A DNA stretch of 64,000 nt, taken from NCBI GenBank assembly GCA_041737385.1, contig JBGSRU010000002.1:56761-120760 (forward strand), given 5' to 3'. Below the pieces are notes generated by a model. The model ran no database searches and was not told where the DNA came from. It was given only the letters and a program-made list of their open reading frames with translations. A program made the translations under genes and the position numbers. The stretch's first letter is position 1. Each line of letters begins with the position of its first letter. This document shows positions 7,359-62,028 of this stretch, in pieces. Source of the stretch: Candidatus Saccharimonadales bacterium. GTDB lineage: Bacteria; Patescibacteriota; Saccharimonadia; Saccharimonadales; SZUA-47.

Positions 7359-8312
7359 AAGCTTTTTTTCACGAAGATAGAGATAGGCTAGCGTACCAGG
7401 TAATAGTGGCTGCAAGTAGGTTATTGTCCTAAAAAGTAAAGCAACACTAGCAGATTCTGCGCCACTAAAGCCGAGTAAGACAAGCATACTTGCTGTTCCT
7501 GCTTCAACCCCTCCCAAACCACCAGGGGTCGGTAGTATACCTCCAACAAATACGCCGGCACTGAGCGCAACGAGTCCGTTTACAAAGCTGAGATGAAGGT
7601 CTAGAGAACGGGCAGAAAGTAGCAGAATACTCACATTGCCGGCAATTATTATGAAAGCAATACAGTAGAGACCAAGTAGGTTTTGCGGATTTTTTGATAG
7701 GTATGAAAAAAGCTTCTTCCATTGTTTGTTGACCTTTAGAATAGTTTGTCTCGTACTTCTGACGTGCATCAGCCACTGAGAAAGGGTGATAAGCCCAATA
7801 ATCAATAAAGCCACGAAAATAAGTGAGCCGGTACTTAGTTTTTCTAACAGCAGATCATGAATTGACGGATTTGCTATAAAAAGCATCACAAGCAGTAGAA
7901 TGTTCAGGCTTAGACCGATAATGTTATTCGCGACAGTAATAATAATTGCTTTCTGCGTTGAAATCCCTATCTTACGGAGGTGCATTACTGATACCCCTAT
8001 GTGACCTAGTCCTCCTGGGATGATTCGTCCTGGGCCACTACCTGCTAATTGAGCAAGTGCGGCCGTTGAAATGGATATTTTTTTATCAGAAAGTAACCTA
8101 TAGCTTACTGCAGTAAGGGGTACGAGTGCCCAATACAGAGCCATGGCTCCCAAAAGATAATAAACATTGCTGCTAGCGATGGCGAATAGTGCTTGATCAA
8201 TTATTTCCCACTGTGTGATGCTAAAAATAACTAACGCTAACAGACCAAACACTTCAAGCAGCGCTCGCTTTTTTAAATGAGGATGATGTTCTTTTCCTAT
8301 AATATGTTTCAT
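7353..8312 (-). CDS. UPF0104 / lysylphosphatidylglycerol-synthase-TM-like (YbhN-type) membrane protein
   Basis: Polytopic membrane protein with the GGILPTPGGLGGVEAG and PGGLGHIGV motifs. Confidence 0.6.
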   Translation of the reverse strand: MKHIIGKEHHPHLKKRALLEVFGLLALVIFSITQWEIIDQALFAIASSNVYYLLGAMALYWALVPLTAVSYRLLSDKKISISTAALAQLAGSGPGRIIPGGLGHIGVSVMHLRKIGISTQKAIIITVANNIIGLSLNILLLVMLFIANPSIHDLLLEKLSTGSLIFVALLIIGLITLSQWLMHVRSTRQTILKVNKQWKKLFSYLSKNPQNLLGLYCIAFIIIAGNVSILLLSARSLDLHLSFVNGLVALSAGVFVGGILPTPGGLGGVEAGTASMLVLLGFSGAESASVALLFRTITYLQPLLPGTLAYLYLREKKLL

Positions 8313-8407
8313 TTTGAGTAAGCTTAAGCTTTATTGTAACAATTAACTATGATATAAGAAAAAGCTTTACGAACAACAGAAGTTTTCATGCTAGAATTTG
8401 TCCATAT

Positions 8408-9361
8408 ATGAACACCTCTTCTTCCGTATTATGGTTTGGCACTTTTCTGTGGTTTTTCAGTTTGCTACTGGGTGATTTATATTTGAGCAGAAAAAATCAA
8501 GGTCCCATATCAACGAAACTTGCTATTACAAGAAGCGCGGTTTGGATCGGGCTTGGTATAGGGTTTGGGTTTTTTGTGTGGGCCGTGCTCGGTGCACACG
8601 CTAGTTCAGAGTATTTCACCGGTTTTATCATCGAAAAGTCACTTAGTATAGATAATATATTTGTGTGGAGCGCACTGATGGCTTATATGAAAATACCCAG
8701 AAACCTCCAATATACCGTTCTGTTTTGGGGAATTATAGGCGCTATATTTTTCCGAACAATATTTATGATTGGCGGCGTAGTAATCTTAGACAAGTTCCAG
8801 TTTATGCTACTTCTATTAGGGGCTCTGCTCATCTACACGGCCTATGGTGTATTCAGAAACTCCGATGAAAATAGCTTTGATCCGGAGAAATCACGAACCA
8901 TTGCCATTATCAAAAAATATCTTCCTTTTACTTCTGATATTGAGGGTAAAAAATTGTTTACTCGCAGAAATGGAAAGATAACTGCGACATATTTATTTTT
9001 TGCGATTGTGACAATCGAAATTACAGATGTGTTGTTTGCTGTTGATAGCGTCCCAACTGTGCTTGCTGTAGTCAGGGATCCTTACCTGGCATTGACGAGT
9101 AACATTGCAGCGATACTCGGCTTACGTGCATTGTATTTTGTATTTGACGGGTTAAAAAATTCCTTCTGGTTGCTTAGTAAGGGCTTGGGAATAATACTGG
9201 GCGCAATAGGTGTGTTACTCCTAGTGGAACCTCGCAGTATATTTGGCATAAAATGGTTTGGATTTGAACTTTCTACGGTTTGGATATTGATGTTTATATT
9301 TACTGTATTAACTCTATCTATACTTGGGTCTAAGCTATTACCAGAGAAATCTAAAGACTAA
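8408..9361 (+). CDS. TerC-family integral membrane protein
   Basis: EKSLSIDNIFVW and FAVDSVP motifs; multiple TM helices. Confidence 0.7.
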   Translation: MNTSSSVLWFGTFLWFFSLLLGDLYLSRKNQGPISTKLAITRSAVWIGLGIGFGFFVWAVLGAHASSEYFTGFIIEKSLSIDNIFVWSALMAYMKIPRNLQYTVLFWGIIGAIFFRTIFMIGGVVILDKFQFMLLLLGALLIYTAYGVFRNSDENSFDPEKSRTIAIIKKYLPFTSDIEGKKLFTRRNGKITATYLFFAIVTIEITDVLFAVDSVPTVLAVVRDPYLALTSNIAAILGLRALYFVFDGLKNSFWLLSKGLGIILGAIGVLLLVEPRSIFGIKWFGFELSTVWILMFIFTVLTLSILGSKLLPEKSKD

Positions 9362-9416: not shown

Positions 9417-10403
9417 GTGGCTGAAGGAGTAACGAATGTAGAAGTTGTTGTAGCACCTCAAGAAAATACTCTTCGAGGAGTAGCTAGCTTAGCGCTGGGA
9501 TCAGTTCAAGCCGAAGCGGAGCCATTTGAGCAAGGCAACCTAGACCTAAAGTTTTTTGTGCAAAGTCCTGATCATTCACTGCTCATCGCTAGAGCAGAAT
9601 CGGATAGCATAGTAGGCTCGGTCAAGTATTCAACTACGAGAGGTGCGGGATTTGGTCAAAGAGGTCAGTTCGCGGAAGTAATTGCCAAAGATGATGACAC
9701 GCGAAGAGTTCTTGTAAGTGCTGCACTTGATGAAGCAAGTGGCAGAAATGATAATCGAATATATTTTCAAACAGATAGCTCTGAATTGATTGAATGGCAC
9801 ATTGCCAATGGAGCTATCGATATGAGTGGCGAGAAAGTTGTCCCGGAGTGGGACCAAGAACTAGAAATTTTTGAGGGTGAAATGACATTTCGTTATGATG
9901 TAGAATCATCATTTCAGAAAATTGCCTCAGAAAATATACGTCCACTCCCTGACGGTTACAGCATAGAACGTTTTTCTGAGTATGATGAAGCGTCTGCCAC
10001 CCAAATTGCTGGACTAATGCCTCAACTAGATAGTACTTTTACCCCAGAATTAACTGATGAACGGCGCGCAAACTACTCTCATATGATTGATAGTGACAAC
10101 TATACTATTATGCTAGTGAAGAATGAAGAAGGGGTAGTTGTTGGAACATTGTCATTAACAATGACCGATACTGAAACATGGCAACTTGAAGACGTAATAC
10201 TAGATGGTTCACAAAGAGGAAACGGGCTTGGAAAGGCCATGATGCAGCATATGGTGCAGTGGGCTCACGACGATGGGTTAGACCAGATACTTCTTCAAAC
10301 AGAAGCATTTCGTACTAAAGCTGTTGGGTTGTACTTTGTAACTGGTGCTGAGATGTTAGTTGACACAAAGACGCTACGTTATGATGTTCCTGCGGCGGCA
10401 TAA
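9417..10403 (+). CDS. Two-domain GNAT-family N-acetyltransferase (C-terminal GNAT clear, N-terminal half GNAT-like)
   Basis: C-terminal GNGLGKAMMQHMVQWAHDDGLDQILLQTE acetyl-CoA P-loop region. The ~328-aa tandem architecture resembles mycothiol synthase MshD, but I treat that only as a hypothesis. Confidence 0.55.
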   Translation: MAEGVTNVEVVVAPQENTLRGVASLALGSVQAEAEPFEQGNLDLKFFVQSPDHSLLIARAESDSIVGSVKYSTTRGAGFGQRGQFAEVIAKDDDTRRVLVSAALDEASGRNDNRIYFQTDSSELIEWHIANGAIDMSGEKVVPEWDQELEIFEGEMTFRYDVESSFQKIASENIRPLPDGYSIERFSEYDEASATQIAGLMPQLDSTFTPELTDERRANYSHMIDSDNYTIMLVKNEEGVVVGTLSLTMTDTETWQLEDVILDGSQRGNGLGKAMMQHMVQWAHDDGLDQILLQTEAFRTKAVGLYFVTGAEMLVDTKTLRYDVPAAA

Positions 10404-10433
10404 ATAAAGTATTTTAATGTTACTATTTTAAAG

Positions 10434-11432: not shown

Positions 11433-12006
11433 TAAAATAAAAGCAGTTATATTTGATTTTTTTGATGTCATTCATACTGATCATCAAAAAGCTTGGCTGA
11501 AACAAAATAACTATCTACGAGAAGGTGAGTTCGCGTCTGCTTCCGATGATTTAGATAGGGGAGTAATAACTCATAGAACTTATCTAGAGCGGTATGCTGC
11601 GGCTCATGGCAGTGGTACAGCAGATGATATTCTTAATCAGTTTAACGAGCTTGCATCGATTAACACAGGAGTTATAGATATTATCCTTGAACTAAGAGAG
11701 AGGCAATATAAAATCGGTTTAGTATCAAACGCACACGCCGATGAGCTAGAACCACTACTAAAAAAACATAGTTTTCATGATCTGTTTGATGAAATCGTGA
11801 TATCTGGAAATGAAGGTGTCGCGAAACCAGACGCCGAGATATTCAAACGAGCACTTAAACTACTTGACGCTAGCCCAGAAGAGTCTATTTTTACTGACGA
11901 TAACGAGAAGAATGTTAAAGGTGCAATCGATGTTGGCATGACTGGCATTCTGTTTACCACCGCTGCAAAACTCAGAGAAGATCTTAGTAAAATGGGTGTA
12001 CTGTAG
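11425..12006 (+). CDS. HAD-superfamily hydrolase, subfamily IA
   Basis: Motif I VIFDFFDV, motif II GLVSN, motif IV FTDDNEKNV; overlaps the upstream kinase by 8 nt. Confidence 0.75.
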   Translation: MASKIKAVIFDFFDVIHTDHQKAWLKQNNYLREGEFASASDDLDRGVITHRTYLERYAAAHGSGTADDILNQFNELASINTGVIDIILELRERQYKIGLVSNAHADELEPLLKKHSFHDLFDEIVISGNEGVAKPDAEIFKRALKLLDASPEESIFTDDNEKNVKGAIDVGMTGILFTTAAKLREDLSKMGVL

Positions 12007-12042: not shown

Positions 12043-15000
12043 TTATGCGACGTAATCGTGCCAGTGTTTTGGCTCAAGGTCTTTCAAGTCTGGATCTGCC
12101 AGACACTGCAAAAGCAGTTTCCCAGTTTCGGCGTTTGTGAGCAACGGTATGTGATTGTCAACCGCTAATCGACGAATAGCAAATCCATCCGTTGTTCTCA
12201 GCCCACTTGTTGGAACATTTATAATAAGATCAATTTTCCTCTGTTCAATAGCTGACTGGACACTCGGAGTTTTGTTCTCACTTATTTTGTATAGCTTTTT
12301 TGTGTTGATTCCATGAGTTTTTAGAAAATCGTGGGTACCACTTGTTGTATAAATAGTCCAGCCATCTTTGACGAGTGGTTCAATTGTTTCAAGGAAGCGA
12401 TGTTTTTTGTCATCCGATAAAGTAATAAACACGTTCTTACCTTGAATATTTTGATCTGTAGCGAGCCATGAGCTATAAAATGCTTCTGCAAGATCTGCCC
12501 CAAAACAAGCAACTTCACCAGTTGATGCCATCTCTACTCCAGCAATTGGATCGGCACCTTTTAGGCGGTTATATGAAAATTGCGGATTTTTAACTGCGAC
12601 ATGATCTAGTTCTAATGTTTGATACGATTTCGTGTTCTTTTTACCTAGCATTGCTTCTGTCGCAATCTCGATAAAATTATAGCCCGAAACTTTAGACACG
12701 AACGGGAACGATCGAGACGCTCGAACATTACATTCAATGACTTTAAGTTCATTATTTTTTGCAATGAATTGGATGTTAAATGGACCTGTTATATGGAGAT
12801 TCTCAATAACTTGTCTCGTAATTTGTTTCGCGCGTCTGACGGTCGCAAGATACAATTCCTGTGCAGGATAGACAACTGTTGCATCACCAGAATGAACCCC
12901 GGCGTTTTCGACATGTTCAGAAATAGCGTAAATAATCATTTTTCCGTCTTGGGCGACACCGTCAATCTCAAGCTCTTTTGCGTTTGTTATAAACTGTGAC
13001 ATAACGACGGGATGATCTGGAGATAGCCTAGTTGCTTCACTTAAATAATCTTCAAGTTCTTCTTCGGATGTGACGACATTCATTGCGCCACCACTCAAAA
13101 CATACGATGGTCTGATCAGAATCGGGTACCCGACACTAACCGCGAATTTTTTTGCTTTCGATAAGCTTGTCACCTCTTCCCATGCTGGTTGATCAATCCC
13201 AAGGCTCGTCAGCATAGACGAGAATTTTTGTCGATCCTCTGCACGGTCGATGTCGTCCGCCTTAGTACCTATAATTGGATAGCCGAGTTTTCCTAGAGGT
13301 AGCGCGAGATTATTTGCGACTTGTCCACCAACTGACACAACTATACCTTTTGGCTTTTCAAAATCAGCGATGTCTTGCACTCGCTCCAAGGTAAGCTCCT
13401 CAAAATAGAGACGATCCGATCGATCAAAATCAGTTGACACCGTCTCTGGGTTAGAGTTGATCATAATAGTCTTCAAGCCATTTTTCTGTAATGTTTTACC
13501 CGTATTTACTGCACTCCAGTCAAACTCAACAGAAGATCCAATTGCGTATGGACCAGAGCCCAAAATTATTGCTGCTTTTTTACCAAGAGACTGTATGTCA
13601 TTTCTGTCTCCGTGATAGGTTGCATATAAATAATTTGTTTCAGCATCAAACTCACCAGCAAGTGTATCAATTTGCTTGAATGACGGTACAATATTTGCTT
13701 TCATTCTTTTTGCTCGTACTACTTGCTCGGTCGTTTTTTGTAAGTTAGCAATAACTCCGTCGGCAAAGCCATTCATTTTAGCTTCGCGCAATAAATCAAT
13801 TGAAAACTTCTCTGATTTTAGACGTTTTTCTGTTGATAGAATTGTTTCCATTTGGTTAAGAAACCACATATCAATTTTTGATACATCATGGATGTGCTCA
13901 GCAGACTCGCCAACTCTCATCGCATCATAAATAGAATAGAGACGTTTATCTGTAGCGGGGAATACTTGTTCCATGGGATCCTTGAACGAGTAAGGATGGT
14001 CTGTTAAGCCTTTTGCGCCAAGGTTAAGCATTCGTACAGCTTTTTGTAACGCTTCAGGAAAGCTACGTCCAAGCGCCATAACTTCACCAACACTTTTCAT
14101 TTCTGAGCCAATTGTATGGTCGCTAGACTTTAATTTTGACAAGTCCCAACGGGGCATTTTAACGGCTATATAATCAAGTGCAGGCTCATAGAATGCTGAC
14201 GTCTTACCGGTCACAATATTTCGTAGTTCGTGGAGCGGCTTTCCAAGCATAAGCTTGGCTGCAACAAATGCTAGAGGGTATCCAGTAGCTTTCGAAGCAA
14301 GGGCACTTGAGCGAGACAGCCTTGCATTTACTTCAATAACTCTATAATCGCCATTTTCTGGGTTAAGCGCATATTGAATGTTACATTCACCAATTATACC
14401 GAGATGATTAATTGTTTTGATCGCGACTTCGCGAAGTCGATGATACTCCTCGTTCGTCATTGTTTGTGATGGTGCAACGACGATACTCTCGCCGGTATGC
14501 ACGCCCATTGGATCAAAGTTCTCCATATTGCAAACAGTGATTGTATTGCCTTTTGCGTCTCGAACTACTTCGTACTCAACTTCCTTCCAACCGCTTAAGT
14601 ATTCTTCGATCAAGACTTGAGGAACGGCTTTTAATACTTCGCCCACTCTAGTTGTGAGTTGTTTTTCGTCGTCAATTCTTCCTGATCCCAGGCCACCTAG
14701 ACTAAACCCAGATCTCAGCATGATAGGGTAGCCTAAAGTTTTTGCAGCTTTGAGCGCTTCTTTGAGTGACTCTGCAGCAAAACTTCGTGCTGTGTGAATA
14801 TCAATTTCGGACAATGCGATCTTAAAAAGATCACGGTCTTCGGTTTTACGGATAACGTCTACTGGTGTTCCTAGCACTTTGATTTTCAGACGCTTAAACA
14901 CACCAAGTTCATCGAGCTTGAGACCTAAGTTCAGCGCAGTCTGCCCGCCAAAACTTAGGGTTACTGCATCAGGTCGTTCTTTTTCGAGAATTTTTGTAAC

Positions 15001-15216
15001 CGTGGCTACATTAAGCGGTTGGAAATATACTCTGTCCGCCATATCCTTGTCCGTTTGCACGGTTGCGATATTTGGGTTTACAAGAACTGTATATATGCCT
15101 TCTTCTTTTAATGCTTTTATGCATTGAGAGCCTGAATAATCGAACTCTCCAGCTTGGCCAATCTTCAGTCCACCAGAACCTAGTATTACTACTTTTTTAA
15201 TGCTAACTGAGCTCAT
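12043..15216 (-). CDS. carB: Carbamoyl-phosphate synthase large subunit
   Basis: 1057 aa with two ATP-grasp halves and a C-terminal MGS domain; MSSVSIKKVVILGSGGLKIGQAGEFDYSGSQ N-terminus. Confidence 0.95.
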   Translation of the reverse strand: MSSVSIKKVVILGSGGLKIGQAGEFDYSGSQCIKALKEEGIYTVLVNPNIATVQTDKDMADRVYFQPLNVATVTKILEKERPDAVTLSFGGQTALNLGLKLDELGVFKRLKIKVLGTPVDVIRKTEDRDLFKIALSEIDIHTARSFAAESLKEALKAAKTLGYPIMLRSGFSLGGLGSGRIDDEKQLTTRVGEVLKAVPQVLIEEYLSGWKEVEYEVVRDAKGNTITVCNMENFDPMGVHTGESIVVAPSQTMTNEEYHRLREVAIKTINHLGIIGECNIQYALNPENGDYRVIEVNARLSRSSALASKATGYPLAFVAAKLMLGKPLHELRNIVTGKTSAFYEPALDYIAVKMPRWDLSKLKSSDHTIGSEMKSVGEVMALGRSFPEALQKAVRMLNLGAKGLTDHPYSFKDPMEQVFPATDKRLYSIYDAMRVGESAEHIHDVSKIDMWFLNQMETILSTEKRLKSEKFSIDLLREAKMNGFADGVIANLQKTTEQVVRAKRMKANIVPSFKQIDTLAGEFDAETNYLYATYHGDRNDIQSLGKKAAIILGSGPYAIGSSVEFDWSAVNTGKTLQKNGLKTIMINSNPETVSTDFDRSDRLYFEELTLERVQDIADFEKPKGIVVSVGGQVANNLALPLGKLGYPIIGTKADDIDRAEDRQKFSSMLTSLGIDQPAWEEVTSLSKAKKFAVSVGYPILIRPSYVLSGGAMNVVTSEEELEDYLSEATRLSPDHPVVMSQFITNAKELEIDGVAQDGKMIIYAISEHVENAGVHSGDATVVYPAQELYLATVRRAKQITRQVIENLHITGPFNIQFIAKNNELKVIECNVRASRSFPFVSKVSGYNFIEIATEAMLGKKNTKSYQTLELDHVAVKNPQFSYNRLKGADPIAGVEMASTGEVACFGADLAEAFYSSWLATDQNIQGKNVFITLSDDKKHRFLETIEPLVKDGWTIYTTSGTHDFLKTHGINTKKLYKISENKTPSVQSAIEQRKIDLIINVPTSGLRTTDGFAIRRLAVDNHIPLLTNAETGKLLLQCLADPDLKDLEPKHWHDYVA

Positions 15217-16340
15217 TTTATTACCTCGTAAAATTCTTGAAATAAGAAAGCTGTATCAGTTGGTCCAGGGCAGGCTTCAGGATGGAACTGTACGGATGAA
15301 AAAGGTTTTGAGCGGTGAGCAATACCTTCAACTGAATTATCATTTAAATTCCGATAAGTCACTTCCCAGCCTTTTGGTAATGACTTATCGTCAATCGCAT
15401 AGCCATGATTCTGACTTGTTATATAGCAGCGCTCATTTTTAGTATTTATGCATGGCTGATTGTGCCCACGGTGGCCAAACTTAAGCTTGTATGTTTTAGC
15501 ACCAGCCGCGAGAGCGAGTAATTGATTGCCTAGACATATGCCAAATATTGGCTTATCCATCGCAATAACTTTTTTTAAATGAGCTATCGCATCAACATAA
15601 TCTTCTGGGTTACCTGGTCCATTTGAAACGAAAACTGCATCAAAAGCTTCGTTGGTATAGTCGTAATCATGCGGAACTTGCTTCAACGTAATTGGTAGTT
15701 TGCGTAAGCTACGCGCAATATTGTCTTTTGCACCACAGTCGACAAGAATTACTTTCTTCGGCCCCATAGATGGGTACTTAGTTGGGGCGTCAATCGTGAC
15801 AAAACTCGTAGCTGATTTAATAGATTTTAGATTTGTACTCGACTTTCCTATCGAACCAATCATCGTGCCTTTCGTACGTAAATGTTTTGTTAGCGCCCGC
15901 GTATCAACATCAAATAAGATAGGTACGCTTTGTTGTTTTAGCCATTCAAGAAGTGACTGTGAGGACTTTGTGTGCGCCCAATTATGTTCGAGCGTGCTTA
16001 CTATGACACCACTAACTTGGATTTTAGAAGATTCCATAGTTGATTCATCAACGCCATAATTACCAATCATCGGATAAGTAAAAACTAAAATCTGTTCAGC
16101 ATATGATGGATCGGTCAGCGATTCGGTATAGCCTGTCATTCCAGTATTGAATACTACTTCTCCAGTTATACCGTCATTTTGCCATTTTGGTGCAGTTCCT
16201 TTAAACTCGGTTCCGTCACTCAAACGAAGCTGAGATTCTTTTTTACTAAAAAAATCGCTCCTCTCGGAGCGATTTCCATGCACGTTTTGTTTGACTATGT
16301 TTGGCGTATTTTTATTCACACTTGCATTCAAATTTATCAA
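15213..16340 (-). CDS. carA: Carbamoyl-phosphate synthase small subunit (glutamine amidotransferase)
   Basis: GICLGNQLL catalytic Cys and HGYA...HPE triad region; 4-nt overlap with carB. Confidence 0.9.
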   Translation of the reverse strand: MINLNASVNKNTPNIVKQNVHGNRSERSDFFSKKESQLRLSDGTEFKGTAPKWQNDGITGEVVFNTGMTGYTESLTDPSYAEQILVFTYPMIGNYGVDESTMESSKIQVSGVIVSTLEHNWAHTKSSQSLLEWLKQQSVPILFDVDTRALTKHLRTKGTMIGSIGKSSTNLKSIKSATSFVTIDAPTKYPSMGPKKVILVDCGAKDNIARSLRKLPITLKQVPHDYDYTNEAFDAVFVSNGPGNPEDYVDAIAHLKKVIAMDKPIFGICLGNQLLALAAGAKTYKLKFGHRGHNQPCINTKNERCYITSQNHGYAIDDKSLPKGWEVTYRNLNDNSVEGIAHRSKPFSSVQFHPEACPGPTDTAFLFQEFYEVIK

Positions 16341-17460: not shown

Positions 17461-19656
17461 ATGGCAAAAAATGCAAAACTGATTATCGCATCAACACGTC
17501 TGCCCGTACGAGTTGTAAAAAGTAACGGAAAAATAACGTATAAACAAAGCGATGGAGGTCTAGCGACTGGCGTCTCATTTGTGAGTAAGTCCAGAGACAG
17601 TGTTTGGGTTGGTTGGCCGGGTATAGCATCGGATGAATTAACCAAGCAAGATAAAATCGACATAATTAAAGAGCTTAAAAAGCGCGACTGCGTCCCTGTG
17701 TTCTTGAGCGAATCGCAAGTAGAACTGTACTACTCCGGCTACTGTAATGCGACACTTTGGCCGCTGCTTCATTATTTTACAGATATGGCACATCACAATA
17801 TTGATTTTTGGAATTCCTACAAGGAAGTCAATACGCTATTTGCGAAAGAAATCAAAAAACACATGAACGACGATTCGCAGGTATGGGTGCACGATTATCA
17901 GCTGATGTTGGTTCCAGAAAAACTACGATCTTACAGTGAGGATGTACATATTGGATTCTTTTTACATACGACATTCCCGTCGTTTGAGATTTTTAGATTA
18001 CTACCTGAGAGAGAGGCTTTGCTGAAAGGACTTCTTGGCGCTGATCTCGTTGGGTTTCATACCTATGACTATGTACGGCACTTTTTGAGCAGCGCTCAAC
18101 GGATACTTGGCTACGAGTCAGAACTTGGGGCCGTAAAGGCCGAAGGACGACGAGTACAAACCGACGCTTTTCCGATAGGCATAGACTATAAAAAGTTTGC
18201 AAAAAGCTCTAAAGATCGGGACGTTAAGAAAAGAGTAAATTCATTTGCACTACATAAGCAGAAAACAAAAGTAATTCTTGCAGTTGATCGCGCAGATTAT
18301 TCTAAAGGCATTCCAGCTCGACTTGACGCATACGAGCTGTTTTTGAAGAACAACCCAAGCTACATGGAAAATGTTGTTTTGGTATTGCTCGCCGCTCCAT
18401 CAAGAGAAAATGTAGAAGCATATCAAACACTTCGAGAAGAAATAGAACAGAAGGTTAGTCGAATCAACGGTCAGTTTTCGACGGTAGACTGGTCACCAAT
18501 TACTTATTTTCATAAGTCGTTGCCGTTATCTGAAGTCAGCGCTCTCTACGCAATGGCTGACGTCATGCTCGTGACGCCGCTTCGAGATGGTATGAACCTT
18601 GTCGCAAAGGAATTTGTAGCCACCAAGCACAACAAATCAGGGGTGCTCATCCTAAGCGAGATGGCAGGTGTCGCGAGCGAACTACCTGAAGCACTGCAGG
18701 TTAATCCAAACAACAGTGAGATGGTAGCAGCTGCTATTGAGCAGGCGTTGACGATGCCACTAAACGAGCAAAAAGAACGAATGCAAGCAATGCAAAGTAG
18801 GATTTCTCAGTATACGATTGGTAGATGGGCAGAAGATTTCTTGACACAACTAGCTAAGACCAGAGACAAGCATGCAGTTTCAGTTAAGAAAATCACTAAA
18901 GACACGCATAAAAAACTAGTAGAAGATTATCGTCAAGCAGACAGGCGACTAATTTTGCTTGACTATGACGGTACGTTAAAAGAGTTTGTTCAGACTCCAT
19001 CTGCAGTACTTGCGCGGCCTTCGATCAAGCTACAGCGAATACTACGTAAACTTGCTCGTGACCCAAAGAACAATGTCACCATCGTCAGCGGACGCCCAAA
19101 AGGCATCCTGTCGTCATTTTTTGAAGACATAGGTCTAAATCTAGTTGCGGAACATGGTGGTTGGGTATTGAACGCTGGATCTTGGGTAAAATCATCTCTT
19201 GCGGCCAAAAAATGGAAAAAAGATATTCTTGAGATAGTGCAAGCCTACGCAGATAGAACGCCAGGCGCAGTTGTTGAAGAGAAAGATTTCTCTATAGCAT
19301 GGCATTATCGACGGGTATCGCCGGATCTTGCGTACGTCCGCAAAGAAGAACTTAAAATGGAGCTGAAAACACTACTATCTGATGTTGAAGTCGGTGTCTT
19401 CCAAGGCAATAAACTGATTGAAATCAAACCAGAGCGTATGCATAAGGGTGCAATAGCGAGCGATCTTATTACAAAAGAGAAATGGGACTTTATCATGGTT
19501 ATTGGTGATGATTACACCGATGAAGATATGTTTGCGGTTTCTCCCGAGCGAAGCTACAGTATAAATGTAGGGAACAGTGACACAAAAGCAAAGTATCAAC
19601 TACCAGATGTGCACCATGTTGTTGAGCTCATCAAAAAACTGTCAGAAATAAAATAA
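17461..19656 (+). CDS. otsAB: Bifunctional trehalose-6-phosphate synthase (GT20) / trehalose-6-phosphate phosphatase (HAD)
   Basis: The N-terminal domain has the OtsA motifs (RLPV...GGLATG, LWPLLHYF, GFFLHTPFP-like). The C-terminal domain has HAD motif I LLDYDGTL and GDDYTDEDMF. Confidence 0.85.
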   Translation: MAKNAKLIIASTRLPVRVVKSNGKITYKQSDGGLATGVSFVSKSRDSVWVGWPGIASDELTKQDKIDIIKELKKRDCVPVFLSESQVELYYSGYCNATLWPLLHYFTDMAHHNIDFWNSYKEVNTLFAKEIKKHMNDDSQVWVHDYQLMLVPEKLRSYSEDVHIGFFLHTTFPSFEIFRLLPEREALLKGLLGADLVGFHTYDYVRHFLSSAQRILGYESELGAVKAEGRRVQTDAFPIGIDYKKFAKSSKDRDVKKRVNSFALHKQKTKVILAVDRADYSKGIPARLDAYELFLKNNPSYMENVVLVLLAAPSRENVEAYQTLREEIEQKVSRINGQFSTVDWSPITYFHKSLPLSEVSALYAMADVMLVTPLRDGMNLVAKEFVATKHNKSGVLILSEMAGVASELPEALQVNPNNSEMVAAAIEQALTMPLNEQKERMQAMQSRISQYTIGRWAEDFLTQLAKTRDKHAVSVKKITKDTHKKLVEDYRQADRRLILLDYDGTLKEFVQTPSAVLARPSIKLQRILRKLARDPKNNVTIVSGRPKGILSSFFEDIGLNLVAEHGGWVLNAGSWVKSSLAAKKWKKDILEIVQAYADRTPGAVVEEKDFSIAWHYRRVSPDLAYVRKEELKMELKTLLSDVEVGVFQGNKLIEIKPERMHKGAIASDLITKEKWDFIMVIGDDYTDEDMFAVSPERSYSINVGNSDTKAKYQLPDVHHVVELIKKLSEIK

Positions 19657-20817: not shown

Positions 20818-21864
20818 TTGTCTTGCAACATAAAGAAAGGCAGTGTATTTAATTTGAAAAAAATTAACCAGCATATTGAAATTGTACGTTCATCCATAAA
20901 GTCGCAAAGCTCTATGAGCCAGCCATCATGTGACGCGCTATATATGCTTTTATCGAAACATTACTCCAACGTCGGAGTCACTACTGTCAATGACCTACAA
21001 GATTTAGAAGGCTTAACAGCCATGCAACCCGACGTCGTTTTCTTGGGCCTGCAGTCAATCCGAGATGTATCATCAGACAAAAGAGACGGCAAGATCTGGC
21101 TTTCTAAATACTTCGATGACCGCGGTATTGTTTATACGGGATCGAACGAATCAGCGCATAAATTAGAGAAAGATAAATCATTAGCTAAAAAGCAAGTCTT
21201 AAGTGCTGGATTAAACACGGCAGCGTATTTTGTCTCTGAGCAGAATTACCCACTCTTAGAAGTAGCAAATACGCTAAAATTTCCACTATTCGTGAAGCCA
21301 ACAGATAGAGGTGGCGGACTTGGCATAAATAGCCTCTCAGTTGTTCGTAACTTTTCGCAGTTGCAAGCAAAAGTACTTTCAATAGCTGAAAAGCATGGTT
21401 CAGATTCACTTATAGAAGAATACCTCGATGGTCGCGAATTCAGCGTCGCAATTATGAGGAAGCAGGGAACAGATAATTATTTTGCTATGCCACTTGAGCT
21501 CATTGCGCCTGAGGACGAGTTTGGCTCTCGGCTATTGAGCGAATCCGTCAAAAGCCAAGATACTGAAACATTTACTGAGATTCTAGACCTCGCCCTAAAA
21601 GAAAAATTAGCTACGTTTGCTAAAGAAATATTCACCGCCTTAAACGCTAGAGACTATGGCCGAATCGATATACGACTTGACTCAGAAGGAGAGCCGCAAT
21701 TTCTTGAAGCCAACCTCATCCCAAGCTTATTGGAGTTTTATGGCAACTTTCCGAAAGCATGCATGCTGAACGAAAATATTGATTACGAATCAATGGTGCT
21801 TAGTATCGTTGCTTTAGCACTAGAACGACAGACTAAGAGCAAAGTGCTTGTCGAATATAATTAG
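20818..21864 (+). CDS. ddl: D-alanine--D-alanine ligase-family ATP-grasp enzyme with a divergent N-terminal domain
   Basis: YTGSNESAHKLEKDKSLAKK, FPLFVKPTDRGGGLGI, EEYLDGREFSVAIM and RIDIRLDSEGEPQFLEANLIPSL match Ddl blocks. The ORF in the track begins with TTG; the true start is uncertain (a TTG at ~20854 has an AAGAAAGG ribosome-binding site). Confidence 0.65.
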   Translation: MSCNIKKGSVFNLKKINQHIEIVRSSIKSQSSMSQPSCDALYMLLSKHYSNVGVTTVNDLQDLEGLTAMQPDVVFLGLQSIRDVSSDKRDGKIWLSKYFDDRGIVYTGSNESAHKLEKDKSLAKKQVLSAGLNTAAYFVSEQNYPLLEVANTLKFPLFVKPTDRGGGLGINSLSVVRNFSQLQAKVLSIAEKHGSDSLIEEYLDGREFSVAIMRKQGTDNYFAMPLELIAPEDEFGSRLLSESVKSQDTETFTEILDLALKEKLATFAKEIFTALNARDYGRIDIRLDSEGEPQFLEANLIPSLLEFYGNFPKACMLNENIDYESMVLSIVALALERQTKSKVLVEYN

Positions 21865-21896: not shown

Positions 21897-22151
21897 CTAA
21901 ACAATAGATAGTTTTGTAGCTAACTCTTGGTTGGATGGCTCAGACAGGATGCTCCCGTCCGAAAAAATAATAGTTGGGATGCTTTTGTAGCCTTTGTTTA
22001 TCCTTACTACTTCTTGTGCTGCGCTTGGATCTTCATCAATATCAATTGATGTAAACGGTATATTGTTATCTTCAAGAAATCGTTTGCTCCGACGGCAGTC
22101 TGCGCACCAACTCGCGCCGTAAAACTGGGTTATGTGTAGATTTTCGCTCAT
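21897..22151 (-). CDS. Mycoredoxin-like glutaredoxin-fold redoxin (WCADC active site)
   Basis: FYGASWCADCRRSKRFL...SIPTIIFSDGSILSEPSNQELATKL has the same architecture as actinobacterial Mrx1 (SWCGYC...TVPTV.FADGS.LTNPS). The start codon overlaps the stop of the upstream LmbE-like gene (ATGA). Confidence 0.65.
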   Translation of the reverse strand: MSENLHITQFYGASWCADCRRSKRFLEDNNIPFTSIDIDEDPSAAQEVVRINKGYKSIPTIIFSDGSILSEPSNQELATKLSIV

Positions 22152-22882
22152 GATATGTTTAACCTCACAAATGATTCCGCGAGTTCGCAAGCGGCTATTT
22201 TCCCTCTTTCAGCCGCGAGCATTTGCATCTTTTTTGTCGTGCCTTGCACGTCTTCAACTTGACTACTATGCGCTGTAATCGCCCGGATTTTCACTGCGAA
22301 TGTATCAGTGATGTCTTCATAGTAGTTACAAATGTTCGGATCCATATTTATAAGTAATAATGTTTTCGTTTTATGGCTCTCGAAACCCTCTTTAAACAAA
22401 CTCGGTATACTTAAGTGATCTCTTGCGAGCGGGAAGACAGCATCGACCGTCGCTTGGCCAACTGCACGGTGATCAGGATGGTTAATGAATCCAGTAGGGG
22501 CATAATAGAGCACTGTTGGATCCATTGTTATAACAACGTCAGGTTTGATACGCCTAATTTCACGTACGATATCTTTTTTTAGATTCATCGTTACTTCAAG
22601 CTCACCATCTGCATAGTTTAGAAAACGAACGTTTTTCCCGCCGACAATCGCAACCGCATCACGCTGTTCGTCTATACGTATTTTTATTAGTTCAGCGGAG
22701 CTTATATCTTTTTCGCTGCCTTTGCTACCATCGGTTACTATCAGATAGTGTACTTCGGCGCCTTGTTTGACATACTTCGCTAGGGTGCCACTCGCGCCGT
22801 AGTCAAGATCATCTGGATGCGCAGCTATTCCTAGCACAATCGTAGGATTTAGGTTATTTTTCTGGATAGTATGGTTAGTCAT
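22148..22882 (-). CDS. LmbE/PIG-L-family N-acetylglucosaminyl deacetylase (MshB/BshB-like)
   Basis: Zinc-binding motif LGIAAHPDDLDYG (AHPDD), HPDH, and the overall LmbE fold. Confidence 0.8.
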   Translation of the reverse strand: MTNHTIQKNNLNPTIVLGIAAHPDDLDYGASGTLAKYVKQGAEVHYLIVTDGSKGSEKDISSAELIKIRIDEQRDAVAIVGGKNVRFLNYADGELEVTMNLKKDIVREIRRIKPDVVITMDPTVLYYAPTGFINHPDHRAVGQATVDAVFPLARDHLSIPSLFKEGFESHKTKTLLLINMDPNICNYYEDITDTFAVKIRAITAHSSQVEDVQGTTKKMQMLAAERGKIAACELAESFVRLNIS

Positions 22883-22924
22883 TGCTAGTATTTTACCATT
22901 ATTGCTGCGTCTATAGGCTATACT

Positions 22925-24109
22925 ATGTATAGTATGAAATTATATAATACAGAATCTAAAAAATATGATTCTCCAAACTTTACTGACGAAGTGTCTATCT
23001 ATGTCTGCGGCATTACCCCGTATGATTCTGCACATTTAGGTCATATTTTTACCTTTATGACATACGATTTACTCGCAAGACGGCTAGAAGACGCTGGCAA
23101 AAAAGTGAAAATGGTCAGAAACATTACTGATGTTGATGAACCGATGTATGTGAAGGCCGAAGAGCTTGGCACTGATTATATGAGCCTCGCAGACACAGAG
23201 ATAAAGTCTTTTGATGAGTCTCTTAGCAAGTTACGATTCATGCCAGTGTATGCTGCTCCTCGCGCAAGCCAGTACATAGAGCAGATGTCCAAGGCCGTTG
23301 AGCGCTTACTTGCTACTAATTATGCCTATAGACTAGAAAACGGCGATATATATTTTGACACCAAAAAAGTAGCTGATTTTGGTTCATTCGCAGGGTTCAG
23401 TGAAAATTTACTGTTGGCACTTTTTAAAGAAAGGGGCGGCAATCCTGACGAAGAAGGCAAGCGAAACAAGCTTGATTTCTTACTATGGAAACAAATCCAC
23501 GACGCGGCAGACAGTGCGCAGTGGGAGACAGCCCTTGGAAGCGGTCGGCCTGGCTGGCATATAGAATGTAGCGTTATGAGTAGTGCGCTGTTAGGAGATA
23601 CTTTTGCGATTCACGGTGGCGGAAGCGATCTCATATTCCCGCATCATGAGTGTGAAATCGCGCAATCAATTGCACTAAACGGCGTAAAGCCTGCCTTATT
23701 GTGGCTACACGTGTACCCGATGTTACTTGCAGGTGAGAAGATGAGCAAAAGTCTCGGCAACATGGTGTTCGCCAAAGATCTTCTAGAGACGTATGACGGT
23801 GCAGTTATTCGTTTAGCACTTATGCACTATCATCATAGAATCGGCGGAGAATGGCAGCCAGAGTTGCTGACACATGCAGAAAAATTATTGAACCAAGTTA
23901 CAGAATATAAAGCTGGAACGTCACTAACGGTTGCGAACCAACTACTCGGTGATGTGCGCACGGCATTAGATGATGACCTGAACACACTTGAAGTAATCGA
24001 TGCAATCCAAGAATTTATCATTTCTTCTGAGAATGTTGATGATATAGACAGAACCACTGAATCAGAAGCCATCGTAAACCAAACACTTAGCTTACTTGGG
24101 CTGGTATAA
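22925..24109 (+). CDS. Short class-I CysRS paralog (394 aa): either MshC-like cysteine ligase or a minimal cysteinyl-tRNA synthetase
   Basis: VCGITPYDSAHLGH (HIGH-like HLGH), zinc ligands WHIECS, and KMSKS at ~aa 272. Only ~120 aa follow KMSKS, against ~190 in canonical CysRS, and the total length matches MshC (~410 aa). Confidence 0.6.
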   Translation: MYSMKLYNTESKKYDSPNFTDEVSIYVCGITPYDSAHLGHIFTFMTYDLLARRLEDAGKKVKMVRNITDVDEPMYVKAEELGTDYMSLADTEIKSFDESLSKLRFMPVYAAPRASQYIEQMSKAVERLLATNYAYRLENGDIYFDTKKVADFGSFAGFSENLLLALFKERGGNPDEEGKRNKLDFLLWKQIHDAADSAQWETALGSGRPGWHIECSVMSSALLGDTFAIHGGGSDLIFPHHECEIAQSIALNGVKPALLWLHVYPMLLAGEKMSKSLGNMVFAKDLLETYDGAVIRLALMHYHHRIGGEWQPELLTHAEKLLNQVTEYKAGTSLTVANQLLGDVRTALDDDLNTLEVIDAIQEFIISSENVDDIDRTTESEAIVNQTLSLLGLV

Positions 24110-24165: not shown

Positions 24166-25290
24166 GTGCATATTCCTAAAAAAGCAGTTATTGCTGTAAT
24201 TGCGCTTCTACTAGTGGTTGCTGCTGGTGTTGGTGTTAATAGTTATTTCAACAAAGACCAAGATCCATATGTGTCACTGGCCCAACCAGAACTTCCTGAT
24301 CCGCCGTTGAAAGAACTTGCTGAGCGCCGTGGAGTTCAGATCGGCTCATTTGCGTCACTCAAATACCTACGGGAGCGTGCTTATACAAGTATTCTCGCTT
24401 CGGAATTTGAATACGCGATAATTGACGGCGAACCTAACTGGCGTTTTGAAGACCATGCACTTCGCCCAACTAAAGATACGTTTGATTTTGCAGATATGGA
24501 CCTAGTATTTGATTTTGCAGACCAGAACGATATGCCGGTAAGAGTGCAGCATATGCTTTGGGGAGACGACAAATGGTTGCCTGATTGGCTGACGCAGGGT
24601 AATTTCAGCCGTGCTGAACTTCTCGATATTATTCAAAATCACATTCAAACAGTTGGAACGAGGTATAAAGGCAAGGTTCGCGAGTATACAGTTGTCAACG
24701 AAGCTTTTAGCCGAGAACTTAAAACTGGCGGTAATGAAGATTGGTGGGGAAAGGAACTTGGAAGAGAATATATTGATAATGCTTTCGTGTGGGCTCGTGA
24801 GGCAGATCCAAACGCGATATTGATTTTGAACGATTTTGGTAACGAAACAGAAGGCGATACATCAAACTTGATGTATGACTATATTAAAGACGCAAAATCA
24901 CGAGGTATTCCAATAGATGCTCTTGGCATGCAGATGCATATAAGTAATTCAAACCCACCATCTACTGAAAAAGTTGTTTCAAATATGAAAAGATTTGCTG
25001 ACTTAGGGTTAAAAATATATATCACAGAATTTGATGTAAATATGCATGACGCAGAGGGAACTGGTGAGGAAAAGGACGCAAGACAAGCAGAAATTTATGT
25101 AGATATGTTGAACGCTTGCTTGCAAGTTGGGCCTGATGTTTGCCCTAACTTTGGGTTTCTTGGGTTGATCGATCGTCAGAGCTGGTATAACGGAATTGGA
25201 CTTGATGATGCAGACCCATTGTTGTTCCGCAGTGACTACTCACCAAAGCCGTCATTCTTTGCGATTCGTGAAGCCTTGCAGAATCAATAG
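24166..25290 (+). CDS. Glycoside hydrolase family 10 (xylanase-like), N-terminal membrane anchor
   Basis: GH10 acid/base block YTVVNEAF and nucleophile block IYITEFDV; N-terminal TM/signal segment. Confidence 0.65.
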   Translation: MHIPKKAVIAVIALLLVVAAGVGVNSYFNKDQDPYVSLAQPELPDPPLKELAERRGVQIGSFASLKYLRERAYTSILASEFEYAIIDGEPNWRFEDHALRPTKDTFDFADMDLVFDFADQNDMPVRVQHMLWGDDKWLPDWLTQGNFSRAELLDIIQNHIQTVGTRYKGKVREYTVVNEAFSRELKTGGNEDWWGKELGREYIDNAFVWAREADPNAILILNDFGNETEGDTSNLMYDYIKDAKSRGIPIDALGMQMHISNSNPPSTEKVVSNMKRFADLGLKIYITEFDVNMHDAEGTGEEKDARQAEIYVDMLNACLQVGPDVCPNFGFLGLIDRQSWYNGIGLDDADPLLFRSDYSPKPSFFAIREALQNQ

Positions 25291-25448: not shown

Positions 25449-25640
25449 TTAGTAGGCTTTTTCTGCGCCTTCTTTGACTGCTTTTTCAGCGTTATCTTTA
25501 GACATCATTGCACAAACAGTTGTTCCACATTTCTCGTGCTTACCTTTAGCCATGAAACCACCTTTTGCAGTTTGATGAATCGCTGGTGCTGATAAATCAA
25601 CGCCTTTTTCCTTACATTTAACGCAATATCCTGTAACCAT
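25449..25640 (-). CDS. Small zinc-ribbon protein (Cys4), 63 aa
   Basis: MVTGYCVKCKEK...KCGTTVC (CxxC...Cx4C). I use the internal ATG because an AAGGAG ribosome-binding site precedes it; the 80-aa ORF in the track is an upstream extension. Confidence 0.5.
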   Translation of the reverse strand: MVTGYCVKCKEKGVDLSAPAIHQTAKGGFMAKGKHEKCGTTVCAMMSKDNAEKAVKEGAEKAY

Positions 25641-26012
25641 GTCTATCTCCTTAAATTTTGTATATTGTTGCATTATAGCGTCTTTTTGCAACAGCCCATA
25701 ACTAAAAGTATAAATCTATCTATATGACAGTACTTTACTGAGGCGGATCATCGCAGCCTAAAGCGTTCCTTTACACTTAGGCTGCTGCAGCACCAAACGT
25801 GACATAAACAATTGTATTTACGGATCTGGAACTGTCAAGGCACCATTTCTATTAGAGTAAGGATTAAAATTTTTAGATAAGAGTATACTTTAAAATATAG
25901 ACCTAGCTAGAAACTATTTTTATATCCATAGTACTATGAGCAAATGCAATGAAAAAATTAGAGACTTGTCTTTTTGCAAAATGATCTTGAAGGATTCGAA
26001 TAAGCTTCATAA

Positions 26013-33608: not shown

Positions 33609-33985
33609 TTTAGTGAAATTTTGGTATAGTCTGTTCCGTCATCTAGCTCTGCTGATAGTTCGTATTTCAGGCAACCTATCGCGGTACATCCTTCCGGGCT
33701 GTAGGTGTATTCACTGCCCGAGTCGTTAATCTTTATACCGTTTTCATCGAAGAGTGCTTCTTTGTCGAGGCCGGGGAGTTTTTCTTCATAGTTAGTGCTG
33801 AGTTCAGCTGGTGTTGGATACTCGCCGTATTCGTTATAATGTTCTTCTAGTTTTTGGTATATCGAGTTGATATCGTTTTTTCGTACGGTATCGCTCGCTT
33901 TGGACTGCGCGCCACTGTAATTAGACAATAATAGTGAAGGGAACAGCCCAAATATAAATGCAAAAAATGCTAAAAGTATGCTCAT
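33605..33985 (-). CDS. Small secreted/membrane-anchored hypothetical protein
   Basis: N-terminal signal/TM segment (ILLAFFAFIFGLFPSLLL); its start overlaps the stop of the upstream glycosidase (ATGA), so the two are co-transcribed. Confidence 0.5.
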   Translation of the reverse strand: MSILLAFFAFIFGLFPSLLLSNYSGAQSKASDTVRKNDINSIYQKLEEHYNEYGEYPTPAELSTNYEEKLPGLDKEALFDENGIKINDSGSEYTYSPEGCTAIGCLKYELSAELDDGTDYTKISLN

Positions 33986-51108: not shown

Positions 51109-51231
51109 TTAACAATTAAACAATATACAGAGAGTCGGAAGGGAACTAGCCCGCTATAACCGATCAGCAACCTGCTTTAAAAAAAGTAAGGTGCTACGTC
51201 TAGCTTGTCCATATTGGTCAAGAAAGATATT
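51109..51231 (+). ncRNA. SAM riboswitch aptamer (S-box / SAM-I-like), copy B, controlling metK
   Basis: Same aptamer as copy A. It is followed by ATATCCT (51242-51248), a perfect complement of the metK ribosome-binding site AGGATAT (51269-51275), which suggests a sequestering hairpin. Confidence 0.8.
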
Positions 51232-51281
51232 GCATTTGTACATATCCTACTGCCCTTATGTGGACGGAAGGATATTTTTAT

Positions 51282-61074: not shown

Positions 61075-62028
61075 ATGAACGACGTTATTATGATAGGAGC
61101 AGGTCCAACAAGTATGGCTGCAGCTGTGTACACTTCACGTGAGGATATAGATACTGTATTGCTCGAAAAAGGGATTATTGGTGGACTTGCTGCAATCACA
61201 GACATGGTGGACAACTATCCAGGCTTTCCGGAAGGAATCGGTGGCATGGAGCTGTCTGAAAACTTGCGCAAACAAGCTGAACGTTTTGGCGCCAAGATTG
61301 AACTCGACGAGGTACTATCTGTAAAAAAAGTAGACAATCATTTTGAGCTCAAAACGGCAGTAGGTGAGTATACATCTAAAACAGTACTTATTGGCACGGG
61401 CTCTGAGTGGAAAAAGCTAGGTATCCCTGGAGAAGCAGAATTTTATGGAAAAGGCGTTCACAACTGCGCAACGTGTGATGGAGCATTTTATAGAGACCAG
61501 AGGTTGGTCGTGGTTGGTGGTGGTAACTCTAGTGCGCAAGAAGCGCTATTCTTAACAAAGTTTGCGAGTCATATTGATATTATGGTTCGAGCCGACAAAT
61601 GGAAAGCAAGCGAAGTGCTCATACATGAAATCGAGAAAAATGATAAGATTACCGTTCATTTTAATACTTCAACTGATGAAATAATTGGCGGTGAAGTAGA
61701 TGGACTTCCGAAAATACTGAAAGTAATAGGTACCAAAGATGGTGTAAAAACTGAATTCGAAACCGACGGAGTCTTTGTGTTTATTGGCCTGCGTCCAGTC
61801 ACGAACTTCTTAGAAGGTTCTGGAGTAGAGTTTGACGATTACGGATTTGTTAAGACAGACGCTAAGCTTATGACTTCAGTTGAGGGTATATTTTGTGCTG
61901 GTGACGTACGCTCAGGTGCAACAATGCAGATTGCTTCTGCAGTCGGAGAAGGCGCATCAGCGGCTCTTTCTATACGAGAATACCTCGAAAACTATGATCG
62001 AGAAAAGATAGCTAACACCAAAGCTTGA
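61075..62028 (+). CDS. trxB: Thioredoxin-disulfide reductase
   Basis: Redox centre CATCDGAFY; FAD (GAGPTSMAAAVY) and NADPH (VVGGGNSSAQEA) Rossmann motifs. Confidence 0.9.
   Translation: MNDVIMIGAGPTSMAAAVYTSREDIDTVLLEKGIIGGLAAITDMVDNYPGFPEGIGGMELSENLRKQAERFGAKIELDEVLSVKKVDNHFELKTAVGEYTSKTVLIGTGSEWKKLGIPGEAEFYGKGVHNCATCDGAFYRDQRLVVVGGGNSSAQEALFLTKFASHIDIMVRADKWKASEVLIHEIEKNDKITVHFNTSTDEIIGGEVDGLPKILKVIGTKDGVKTEFETDGVFVFIGLRPVTNFLEGSGVEFDDYGFVKTDAKLMTSVEGIFCAGDVRSGATMQIASAVGEGASAALSIREYLENYDREKIANTKA

Follow-up and report, generated by a model that had tools for sequence, protein, structure and literature searches.

The 64,000-nucleotide stretch of contig JBGSRU010000002.1 from a Candidatus Saccharimonadales bacterium analyzed here (the window) contains, between positions 21,897 and 24,109, a module of three genes encoding a short cysteine ligase derived from cysteinyl-tRNA synthetase (CysRS), an LmbE/PIG-L zinc N-deacetylase and a glutaredoxin-fold redoxin. 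We give a probability of about 0.55 to the reading in which this module is a compact system of the Saccharibacterium for a low-molecular-weight thiol of the form Cys-GlcN-X, in which cysteine would be joined to glucosamine (GlcN) bearing a presumed acceptor X. Judging from its architecture, modeled structure, an indel in the CP1 loop and phylogeny, the 394-amino acid (aa) ligase belongs to the short lineage typified by MshC, the cysteine-adding enzyme of the mycothiol (MSH) pathway, and not to canonical CysRS. An earlier automated reading of the same DNA (the original prediction) had called this protein MshC-like, and in this respect it was borne out.

The ligase gene occupies 22925..24109 on the plus strand (tRNA-synt_1e domain), whereas the deacetylase gene (22148..22882, 244 aa, AHPDD and HPDH motifs) and the redoxin gene with its WCADC active site (21897..22151, 84 aa from the ATG at 22151) lie on the minus strand. 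A longer redoxin open reading frame (ORF), 21897..22190, would encode 97 aa if a TTG start were used, but the ATG is favored because the redoxin homologues span 75-88 aa. On the minus strand, which reads ...AAC ATA TCA TGA GCG... at the junction, the LmbE stop codon TGA and the redoxin ATG overlap as ATGA. The start codons of the deacetylase and the ligase are separated by a divergent spacer of 42 bp (22883..22924), or of 51 bp when counted to a second ATG of the ligase at 22934; this ATG, giving 391 aa, is probably the true start, since the ORF begins MYSMKL..., whereas its homologues start at MKL... and all sequences of the family alignment A1 share M4. The ligase carries AHLGH at residues 36-40, WHIECS at 211-216 and KMSKS at 272-276, and the deacetylase AAHPDD at 20-25 and HPDH at 134-137, so that ORFs, motifs and ATGA overlap were all as previously described. 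Pfam assigned the three proteins to tRNA-synt_1e (300 bits), PIG-L (110 bits) and Glutaredoxin (47 bits), respectively, and the nearest homologues of all three came from Candidatus Saccharibacteria, Saccharimonadales and Microsaccharimonas. The GC content of the window is about 41%.

To place the ligase between MshC and canonical CysRS, we used profile hidden Markov models (HMMs), motif and domain architecture, structure prediction and phylogeny. Against NCBIfam, the ligase scored 350.3 bits with the MshC model TIGR03447, residues 3-392 aligning to positions 17-408 of 411, and 319.6 bits with the CysS model TIGR00435, covering only model positions 1-384 of 466 and falling under the cutoff of 340. 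The comparison of the two models, which the original prediction had put forward as a check, was therefore won by MshC as regards the score (350 versus 320), with both values under the respective cutoffs. In a wider HMM panel the MshC score was the higher one in all the Saccharibacteria short forms (322-372 bits, versus 291-328 for CysS), and the MshC and CysS scores were 376 and 333 bits for the related sequence P0122, 391 and 345 for P0125, and 412 and 362 for P0126; the control, a bona fide MshC from Janibacter, gave 595 bits with MshC and 261 with CysS. By these scores the Saccharibacteria and related short forms make up an intermediate group. Function cannot be read from the CysS cutoff, because P0125 exceeds it and yet directly precedes a canonical CysRS of 459 aa.

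The architecture of the protein is that of MshC. No CysS_C anticodon-binding domain was detected in the ligase by Pfam, and the protein ends 118 aa past KMSKS, in line with the roughly 120 aa estimated beforehand. Among 80 named genome loci, the residues after KMSKS numbered 100-140 in short forms and 185-225 in canonical CysRS, a clean split, and the motif CG(I/V)TPYD of the short forms was replaced in most canonical CysRS by CGxT(V/I)YD. With MshC of Mycobacterium smegmatis (PDB 3C8Z/8HFM), which likewise has no anticodon-binding domain, the ligase has in common the Rossmann fold, CP1, the SC fold and the C-terminal helical domain, together with CGITPYD, HLGH, KMSKS, the zinc ligands Cys28, Cys215 and His240 and an RGG(D/N)P..GK insertion. 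The two are only 34-36% identical, however, and the ligase of the window differs further in coming from a Candidate Phyla Radiation (CPR) genome of about 41% GC and in being paired with LmbE. Sequence alignment to the PDB placed ligase residues 22-388 on residues 38-405 of the 413 of MshC. Database naming of the family is in conflict, JGI calling its members L-cysteine:GlcN-Ins ligase (MshC; Ins, inositol) and NCBI cysteine--tRNA ligase.

An AlphaFold2 model of the ligase (predicted local distance difference test 88.8, predicted template modeling score 0.89) gave as best Foldseek match the M. smegmatis MshC (8hfn/3c8z), with template modeling (TM) scores of 0.91/0.87 and a root-mean-square deviation of 2.2-2.7 Å, whereas CysRS structures were matched with TM scores of 0.81-0.86/0.74-0.83 and 3.6-4.4 Å. 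A local difference lies in the CP1 loop, where all the short forms have a 4-residue insertion at the site occupied by ...GA-RVE in canonical CysRS; in the window ligase this loop reads KERGGNPDEEGK. The loop motif RGG(D/N)P was found in all 10 Saccharibacteria ligases, in 24 of 25 actinomycete MshC sequences, in 9 of 14 Acidimicrobiia and sister forms and in 3 of 25 other short forms, versus 0 of 34 canonical CysRS, and some Saccharibacteria ligases match the MshC consensus RGGDPDRPGK. In CysRS, the CP1 loop 'xxGA-RVE' reads the first acceptor-stem base pair of the tRNA (PMC5389517), and in MshC the helix end adjoining the loop lines a channel beside the site of cysteinyl adenylate (Cys-AMP) (PMC13156731). 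Since the RGG(D/N)P insertion stands at the canonical GA-RVE site, the CP1 element that reads the tRNA acceptor stem has been swapped for an MshC-type RGGNP element.

The nearest sequences outside Saccharibacteria, as retrieved by an exhaustive search of representatives, were all short forms. In bootstrapped neighbor-joining trees of the catalytic core, the Saccharibacteria ligases formed a monophyletic clade (97% bootstrap) with P0122 as sister (91%), placed beside the Acidimicrobiia short forms and the actinomycete MshC clade (100%), and canonical CysRS was separate with 60-66% support. The P0122 locus has 68.5% GC and carries CysH/CysD/CysN, CbiX and an MDMPI_N gene (mycothiol-dependent DinB-type). 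Loci L007, L008, L009, L013 and L090 have GC contents of 62-73%, compared with 33-52% for the Saccharibacteria-type loci. In L007 (10001-12636) and L013 (9926-12663) the short MshC-like gene lies directly upstream of a canonical cysS, the L007 copy of which encodes 459 aa with DALR_2 and CysS_C domains; this tandem of short and canonical paralogs, found in two genomes of high-GC Actinomycetota, one of the Acidimicrobiales and one represented by a 4.45-Mb contig, appears to be uncharacterized. The actinobacterial short paralogs (L007a/P0125, L013a and P0122) are the closest relatives outside Saccharibacteria, at 41-46% identity, in the same length class and with the same intermediate HMM profile (MshC 376-412 bits, CysS 333-362 bits). 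They differ from the window ligase in coming from large genomes of 62-73% GC and in having no adjacent LmbE, and they too are uncharacterized.

The nesting of the ligase clade inside high-GC Actinomycetota sequences indicates that the gene was most probably gained horizontally from a short paralog of Actinomycetota, the phylum of the cultured hosts. Those Saccharibacteria that have been cultivated live on Actinobacteria as epibionts. The trait had been described beforehand as one not expected outside Actinobacteria, and its occurrence here is likely explained by this epibiont lifestyle together with the actinobacterial nesting, that is, by horizontal transfer.

The coupling between ligase and deacetylase was conserved. 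In all seven contexts available, namely the window, L001 (a 915-kb contig), L003, L005, L006, L089 and L328, the LmbE gene was adjacent and divergent to the ligase gene, with 15-67 bp between the start codons, and the pairing was kept even where the ligase was only 49% (L089) or 51% (L328) identical to that of the window. Around the pair, the flanks of L006, L089, L328 and the window are entirely different, whereas the outer flanks of L001, L003 and L005 are partly syntenic. When the best 120 matches of the ligase were compared with the best 120 of LmbE, the two lists had 18 contigs of identical size in common, 11 of which measured ≤16.6 kb. A functional link between ligase and LmbE was thereby supported on two grounds, divergent adjacency and common contigs. 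No LmbE homologue was present within 10 kb of the ligase relatives in 80 non-Saccharibacteria loci. The module is widespread in environmental Saccharibacteria. In three contexts (L001 7060-8633, L003 5602-9159 and L005 3106-6644) the LmbE gene abuts pgl, zwf and gnd, a source of NADPH.

The redoxin is associated with the pair less regularly. Eight of its 27 detectable relatives are on contigs common to the LmbE and/or ligase lists (1294, 3310, 9095, 58466, 59707, 398991, 778864 and 531481 bp), and one contig of 3,310 bp carries ligase, LmbE and redoxin together; as the redoxin is not adjacent in four other contexts, it is a lineage-specific addition to the ligase/LmbE pair.

ATP-grasp ligases were considered as a fourth component and rejected, because those of the window (20818..21864) and of L089 (6165..7157 and 7655..8566) are not orthologous (BLASTP E 0.06 and 2.2). 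These genes are convergent to the LmbE operon, the one in the window being Ddl-like (104 bits, under cutoff) and those in L089 GshB-like and RimK-like.

Canonical CysRS are encoded by other members of the phylum. In Southlakia epibionticum the gene SEML1_0393 (1,491 bp, 496 aa, K01883), scored as growth-defect/essential by transposon sequencing, adjoins a K06881 DHH phosphoesterase gene (PMC10633639), and in the closed 1.45-Mb soil genome of T. rhizospherense gene _1033 (469 aa, K01883) is preceded by K06881 (PMC6031116). The gene tables of these two genomes, the latter complete with 1,531 genes, list no second CysRS, no K15526 and no PIG-L/LmbE (PMC10633639, PMC6031116). Since both closed genomes are without the short ligase and LmbE together, the pair behaves as an accessory unit, which is either there or missing as a whole. 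A screen of 240 loci for the DHH-cysS synteny returned only the Firmicutes-type L143 and no canonical CysRS from a module-bearing Saccharibacterium; likewise, none from a module-bearing genome was found in the supplements of further Saccharibacteria papers, and scans of viral contigs gave neither short forms nor a canonical CysRS candidate. Among the candidates discarded for this role, the top full-length CysRS representatives were archaeal or otherwise unrelated by name or context, and the ORF downstream of the ligase in L089 proved to be ComEC.

The deacetylase is a clear member of the LmbE superfamily (PF02585, 110.5 bits versus a cutoff of 28.2, with the AHPDD/HPDH motifs present). It shares the LmbE/PIG-L fold and both motifs with BshB1/BshB2 of the bacillithiol (BSH) pathway and with MshB/Mca, and with BshB also the length of about 240 aa, but it remained far below all four equivalog cutoffs, scoring 84.2 bits with BshB2 TIGR04000 (cutoff 195.25), 82.2 with BshB1 TIGR04001 (182.5), 49.4 with Mca TIGR03446 (277) and 37.5 with MshB TIGR03445 (224), the last over the N-terminal part only. 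Its best PDB matches were archaeal diacetylchitobiose deacetylases (107-90 bits) and LnmX (100 bits), followed by BC1534 (56), BshB1 (39) and, with the N-terminus only, MshB (28). The deacetylase had been put forward as MshB-like, with a grouping with BshB named beforehand as an observation that would count against the original prediction; both BshB models did outscore MshB, and the MshB-like assignment was dropped. The substrate of the enzyme is likely of the N-acetylglucosamine (GlcNAc) type.

As regards the redoxin, the top NCBIfam match was mycoredoxin TIGR02200 with 77.8 bits (cutoff 89.5), ahead of YruB (51.5) and NrdH (41.4), and the best PDB match was M. tuberculosis Mrx1 (Rv3198A, 2LQO; 53.8 bits, residues 10-81 versus 8-79). 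The two proteins have in common a glutaredoxin fold of about 80 aa and the layout WCxxC...N.G..(S/T)(I/V)PT..F.DGS.L..PS..EL..KL. They differ in the active site, which is CGYC in Mrx1 and WC(A/G/P)DC in the redoxin family of the window, where W-C-x-D is invariant and the second Cys is present in at least 90% of the members. This family is small (27 members detected), mostly of Saccharibacteria type with one Dehalococcoidia and one archaeal relative. The mycoredoxin-like character suggested earlier was thus retained as far as the closest solved relative is concerned, and lost as regards the active site and the mycoredoxin cutoff. In Dehalococcoidia, locus L054 encodes at 12614-12832 a 55%-identical WCxDC redoxin homologue, 1.5 kb downstream of a canonical CysRS.

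Taken in order, the three proteins could act as follows. The LmbE zinc deacetylase would strip the N-acetyl group from a GlcNAc-X glycoside and leave a free amine; the ligase, with L-cysteine bound at its zinc site, would then activate it to Cys-AMP and transfer the cysteine to the freed amine, and not to tRNA, giving Cys-GlcN-X; finally, where present, the WCxDC redoxin might use Cys-GlcN-X for protein de-thiolation and reduction, as mycoredoxin does with mycothiol. This order of steps matches that of the two known Cys-aminosugar pathways, in which deacetylation directly precedes the addition of cysteine (MshB before MshC, BshB before BshC). A Cys-aminosugar thiol resembling mycothiol or bacillithiol is a plausible form of the mycothiol-like thiol originally predicted. 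Biosynthesis of mycothiol in the strict sense is unsupported, since the deacetylase is not MshB-like, the window lacks mshA, mshD, ino1 and mtr, the ligase has a CysRS-like core and stays under the MshC cutoff, and the redoxin is of WCxDC type.

Several results weigh against the thiol module and must be set beside it. The ligase does not reach the MshC equivalog cutoff of 485.1 bits, and the neighbor-joining backbone is weak (16-49%). At 25 discriminating positions, conserved but different when 25 actinomycete MshC are set against 34 canonical CysRS, the consensus of the Saccharibacteria ligases was CysRS-like at 14, MshC-like at 7 and neither at 4; among the CysRS-like positions are the IHGGG...FPHHExEIAQS core and the Glu that is the fourth zinc ligand, both of which the window ligase, unlike MshC, has kept. 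The same mixed pattern was seen in Acidimicrobiia short forms, and the catalytic core, less derived than that of actinomycete MshC, would be compatible with an early-branching MshC-like ligase as well as with a truncated CysRS. Net charge and isoelectric point, tried as proxies for tRNA binding, were non-discriminating, the charge of the ligase resembling that of canonical CysRS. The CPR Levybacteria locus L027 (1432-2664) encodes a short form of 410 aa whose loop reads DRGGNP and which sits among dprA, PBP2 and mreC and without LmbE. The deacetylase, as said, is not MshB-like. In the 64-kb window we found no GT4 mshA/bshA, no ino1, no mshD and no mtr or other thiol-specific disulfide reductase, so that the mshA which the original prediction had proposed to look for and the inositol-phosphate synthase which it also named were both missing there. 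Furthermore, the canonical CysRS alongside which the ligase would work has to be placed elsewhere in the genome, their coexistence being deduced from other genomes.

Much of this evidence also bears on the alternative that survives best, in which the 394-aa protein is a minimal CysRS, sole or auxiliary, that charges tRNA-Cys without an anticodon domain, its pairing with LmbE and redoxin being a frozen divergent-promoter arrangement without common chemistry. The CysRS-like residues at 14 of 25 positions with the fourth zinc ligand, the CysS score close to its cutoff (320 versus 340), the label cysteine--tRNA ligase given by NCBI to several homologues, the charge, and the Levybacteria form among housekeeping genes are all as expected for such an enzyme, and by tblastn with canonical CysRS the 394-aa gene was the sole CysRS-like gene in the 64-kb window. 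There is also a precedent in the CysRS* of Desulfobacterales, which is without the anticodon domain, has an altered CP1 and still charges tRNA (Mukai et al., 2017; PMC5389517). CysRS*, however, is genetically linked to selB* and selC* and has a dedicated tRNA as its substrate, whereas the window ligase is linked to a deacetylase and a redoxin and has the MshC-type CP1 loop in place of the one that reads the acceptor stem; neither a tRNA-Cys gene nor one for an unusual tRNA was found with the module, which disfavors a dedicated pair of the CysRS* kind. Moreover, canonical CysRS with the DHH-cysS synteny is found in two distant closed Saccharibacteria genomes that are without the short form, and the ligase clade nests in actinobacterial paralogs which coexist with a canonical CysRS, one of them (P0125) even exceeding the CysS cutoff. 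The adjacency of LmbE in seven of seven contexts and the joint absence of the pair from both closed genomes also argue against a charging enzyme, and we consider a minimal CysRS unlikely, if still the strongest competitor of the thiol module.

A variant of the thiol module, which we hold to be about as unlikely as the minimal CysRS, is one of salvage, in which Saccharibacteria living on Actinobacteria would build a mycothiol-like thiol from GlcNAc-Ins or GlcN-Ins of the host or from products of mycothiol breakdown. The ligase captured from the host phylum and LmbE, combined into a minimal operon-like unit and joined in some lineages by the redoxin, could then suffice without glycosyltransferase and inositol-phosphate steps of their own.

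It is also conceivable, although rather improbable in our view, that the ligase does join cysteine to an aminosugar but that the resulting compound has a role other than redox buffering. Ligase and deacetylase would then process host-derived or envelope GlcNAc compounds for cysteine storage or import, for modification of envelope glycoconjugates or for a secondary metabolite, and the redoxin would have only a general thiol-disulfide function. The nearest characterized relatives of the deacetylase, diacetylchitobiose deacetylases and LnmX and not thiol-pathway enzymes, fit such a role, as do the presence of the redoxin in only a subset of genomes, the richness of the window in glycan enzymes (GH10, OtsAB and GH63) and the lack of any thiol-specific disulfide reductase seen, with only a TrxB-sized protein at 61075..62028. 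On the other hand, the window redoxin has mycoredoxins as its best relatives and shows translational coupling to LmbE, and three of the contexts have the NADPH-producing genes of the oxidative pentose-phosphate pathway right beside the module. To our knowledge, wherever a chemistry in which a Cys ligase follows a deacetylase has been characterized, it forms the central part of a pathway to a thiol cofactor (MSH, BSH). Finally, independent functions brought together by accident, as could occur in compact genomes and as the syntenic pgl-zwf-gnd left flank in three loci and the coincidental, non-orthologous ATP-grasp genes near the module in two loci might suggest, are very improbable for a pair that is kept where both flanks wholly differ (L006, L089, L328 and the window) and down to 49-51% ligase identity, that has 18 contigs in common among the best-120 lists and that is jointly absent from two closed genomes.

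In a search of the literature we found no paper on MshC-like genes, LmbE or mycoredoxin in Saccharibacteria and no description of a low-molecular-weight thiol system in CPR/Patescibacteria, and one metagenomic study sets 'mycothiol genes' outside Actinomycetota to zero. An MSH/BSH-like module with a ligase of the intermediate MshC lineage is so far undocumented in CPR bacteria. If the module does make a Cys-aminosugar thiol, cofactors of the MSH/BSH type would extend to ultra-small episymbionts, a concrete case of gene flow from host to epibiont would have shaped redox physiology, and the intermediate MshC lineage, shared with Acidimicrobiia, would inform on the conversion of a tRNA synthetase into a small-molecule ligase. 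Salvage would make it the first low-molecular-weight thiol system in the CPR and a case of cofactor piracy by an epibiont. Should the protein instead function as a CysRS, it would represent a naturally occurring minimal form of the enzyme with a remodeled acceptor-stem-reading loop, relevant to tRNA identity.

Elsewhere in the window, the gene at 9417..10403, which had been singled out for comparison with the tandem-GNAT MshD, was rejected as such: it gave no TIGR03448 match at E ≤ 0.001 and has a single GNAT domain (residues 211-306), its best matches being aminoglycoside and streptothricin acetyltransferases with ≤28.5 bits. It opens a run (9417-12006) in which this 328-aa protein, with its C-terminal GNAT domain and an N-terminal region of about 200 aa without family match, is followed by an APH/homoserine-kinase-like phosphotransferase and then a HAD phosphatase. 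The sole disulfide reductase candidate seen in the window is a 317-aa Pyr_redox_2 protein (61075-62028) of thioredoxin-reductase size.

Just upstream of the module, 17461-19656 encodes a fused OtsA-OtsB trehalose-6-phosphate synthase/phosphatase (957 bits, above cutoff), and 33982-35340 a GH63 protein resembling glucosylglycerate/mannosylglycerate hydrolases (268 bits, under cutoff); together they point to compatible-solute metabolism. Directly downstream of the ligase lies a GH10 xylanase (24166-25290, 250 bits) with an N-terminal hydrophobic anchor, which suggests the use of plant polymers by the Saccharibacterium, and between it and an amino-acid permease there is an 80-aa DUF5679 protein (25449-25691). 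The large and small subunits of carbamoyl-phosphate synthase (12043-16340) and a 515-aa ketol-acid reductoisomerase (52821-54368) are a biosynthetic capacity beyond that usual for Saccharibacteria. A consensus promoter scan of the module locus was uninformative, with 4 sites versus 6.3 expected and hence no enrichment. A SAM-I riboswitch (51120-51233; 47.3 bits, above the gathering score) was found directly upstream of metK (51258-52379), which encodes S-adenosylmethionine (SAM) synthetase.

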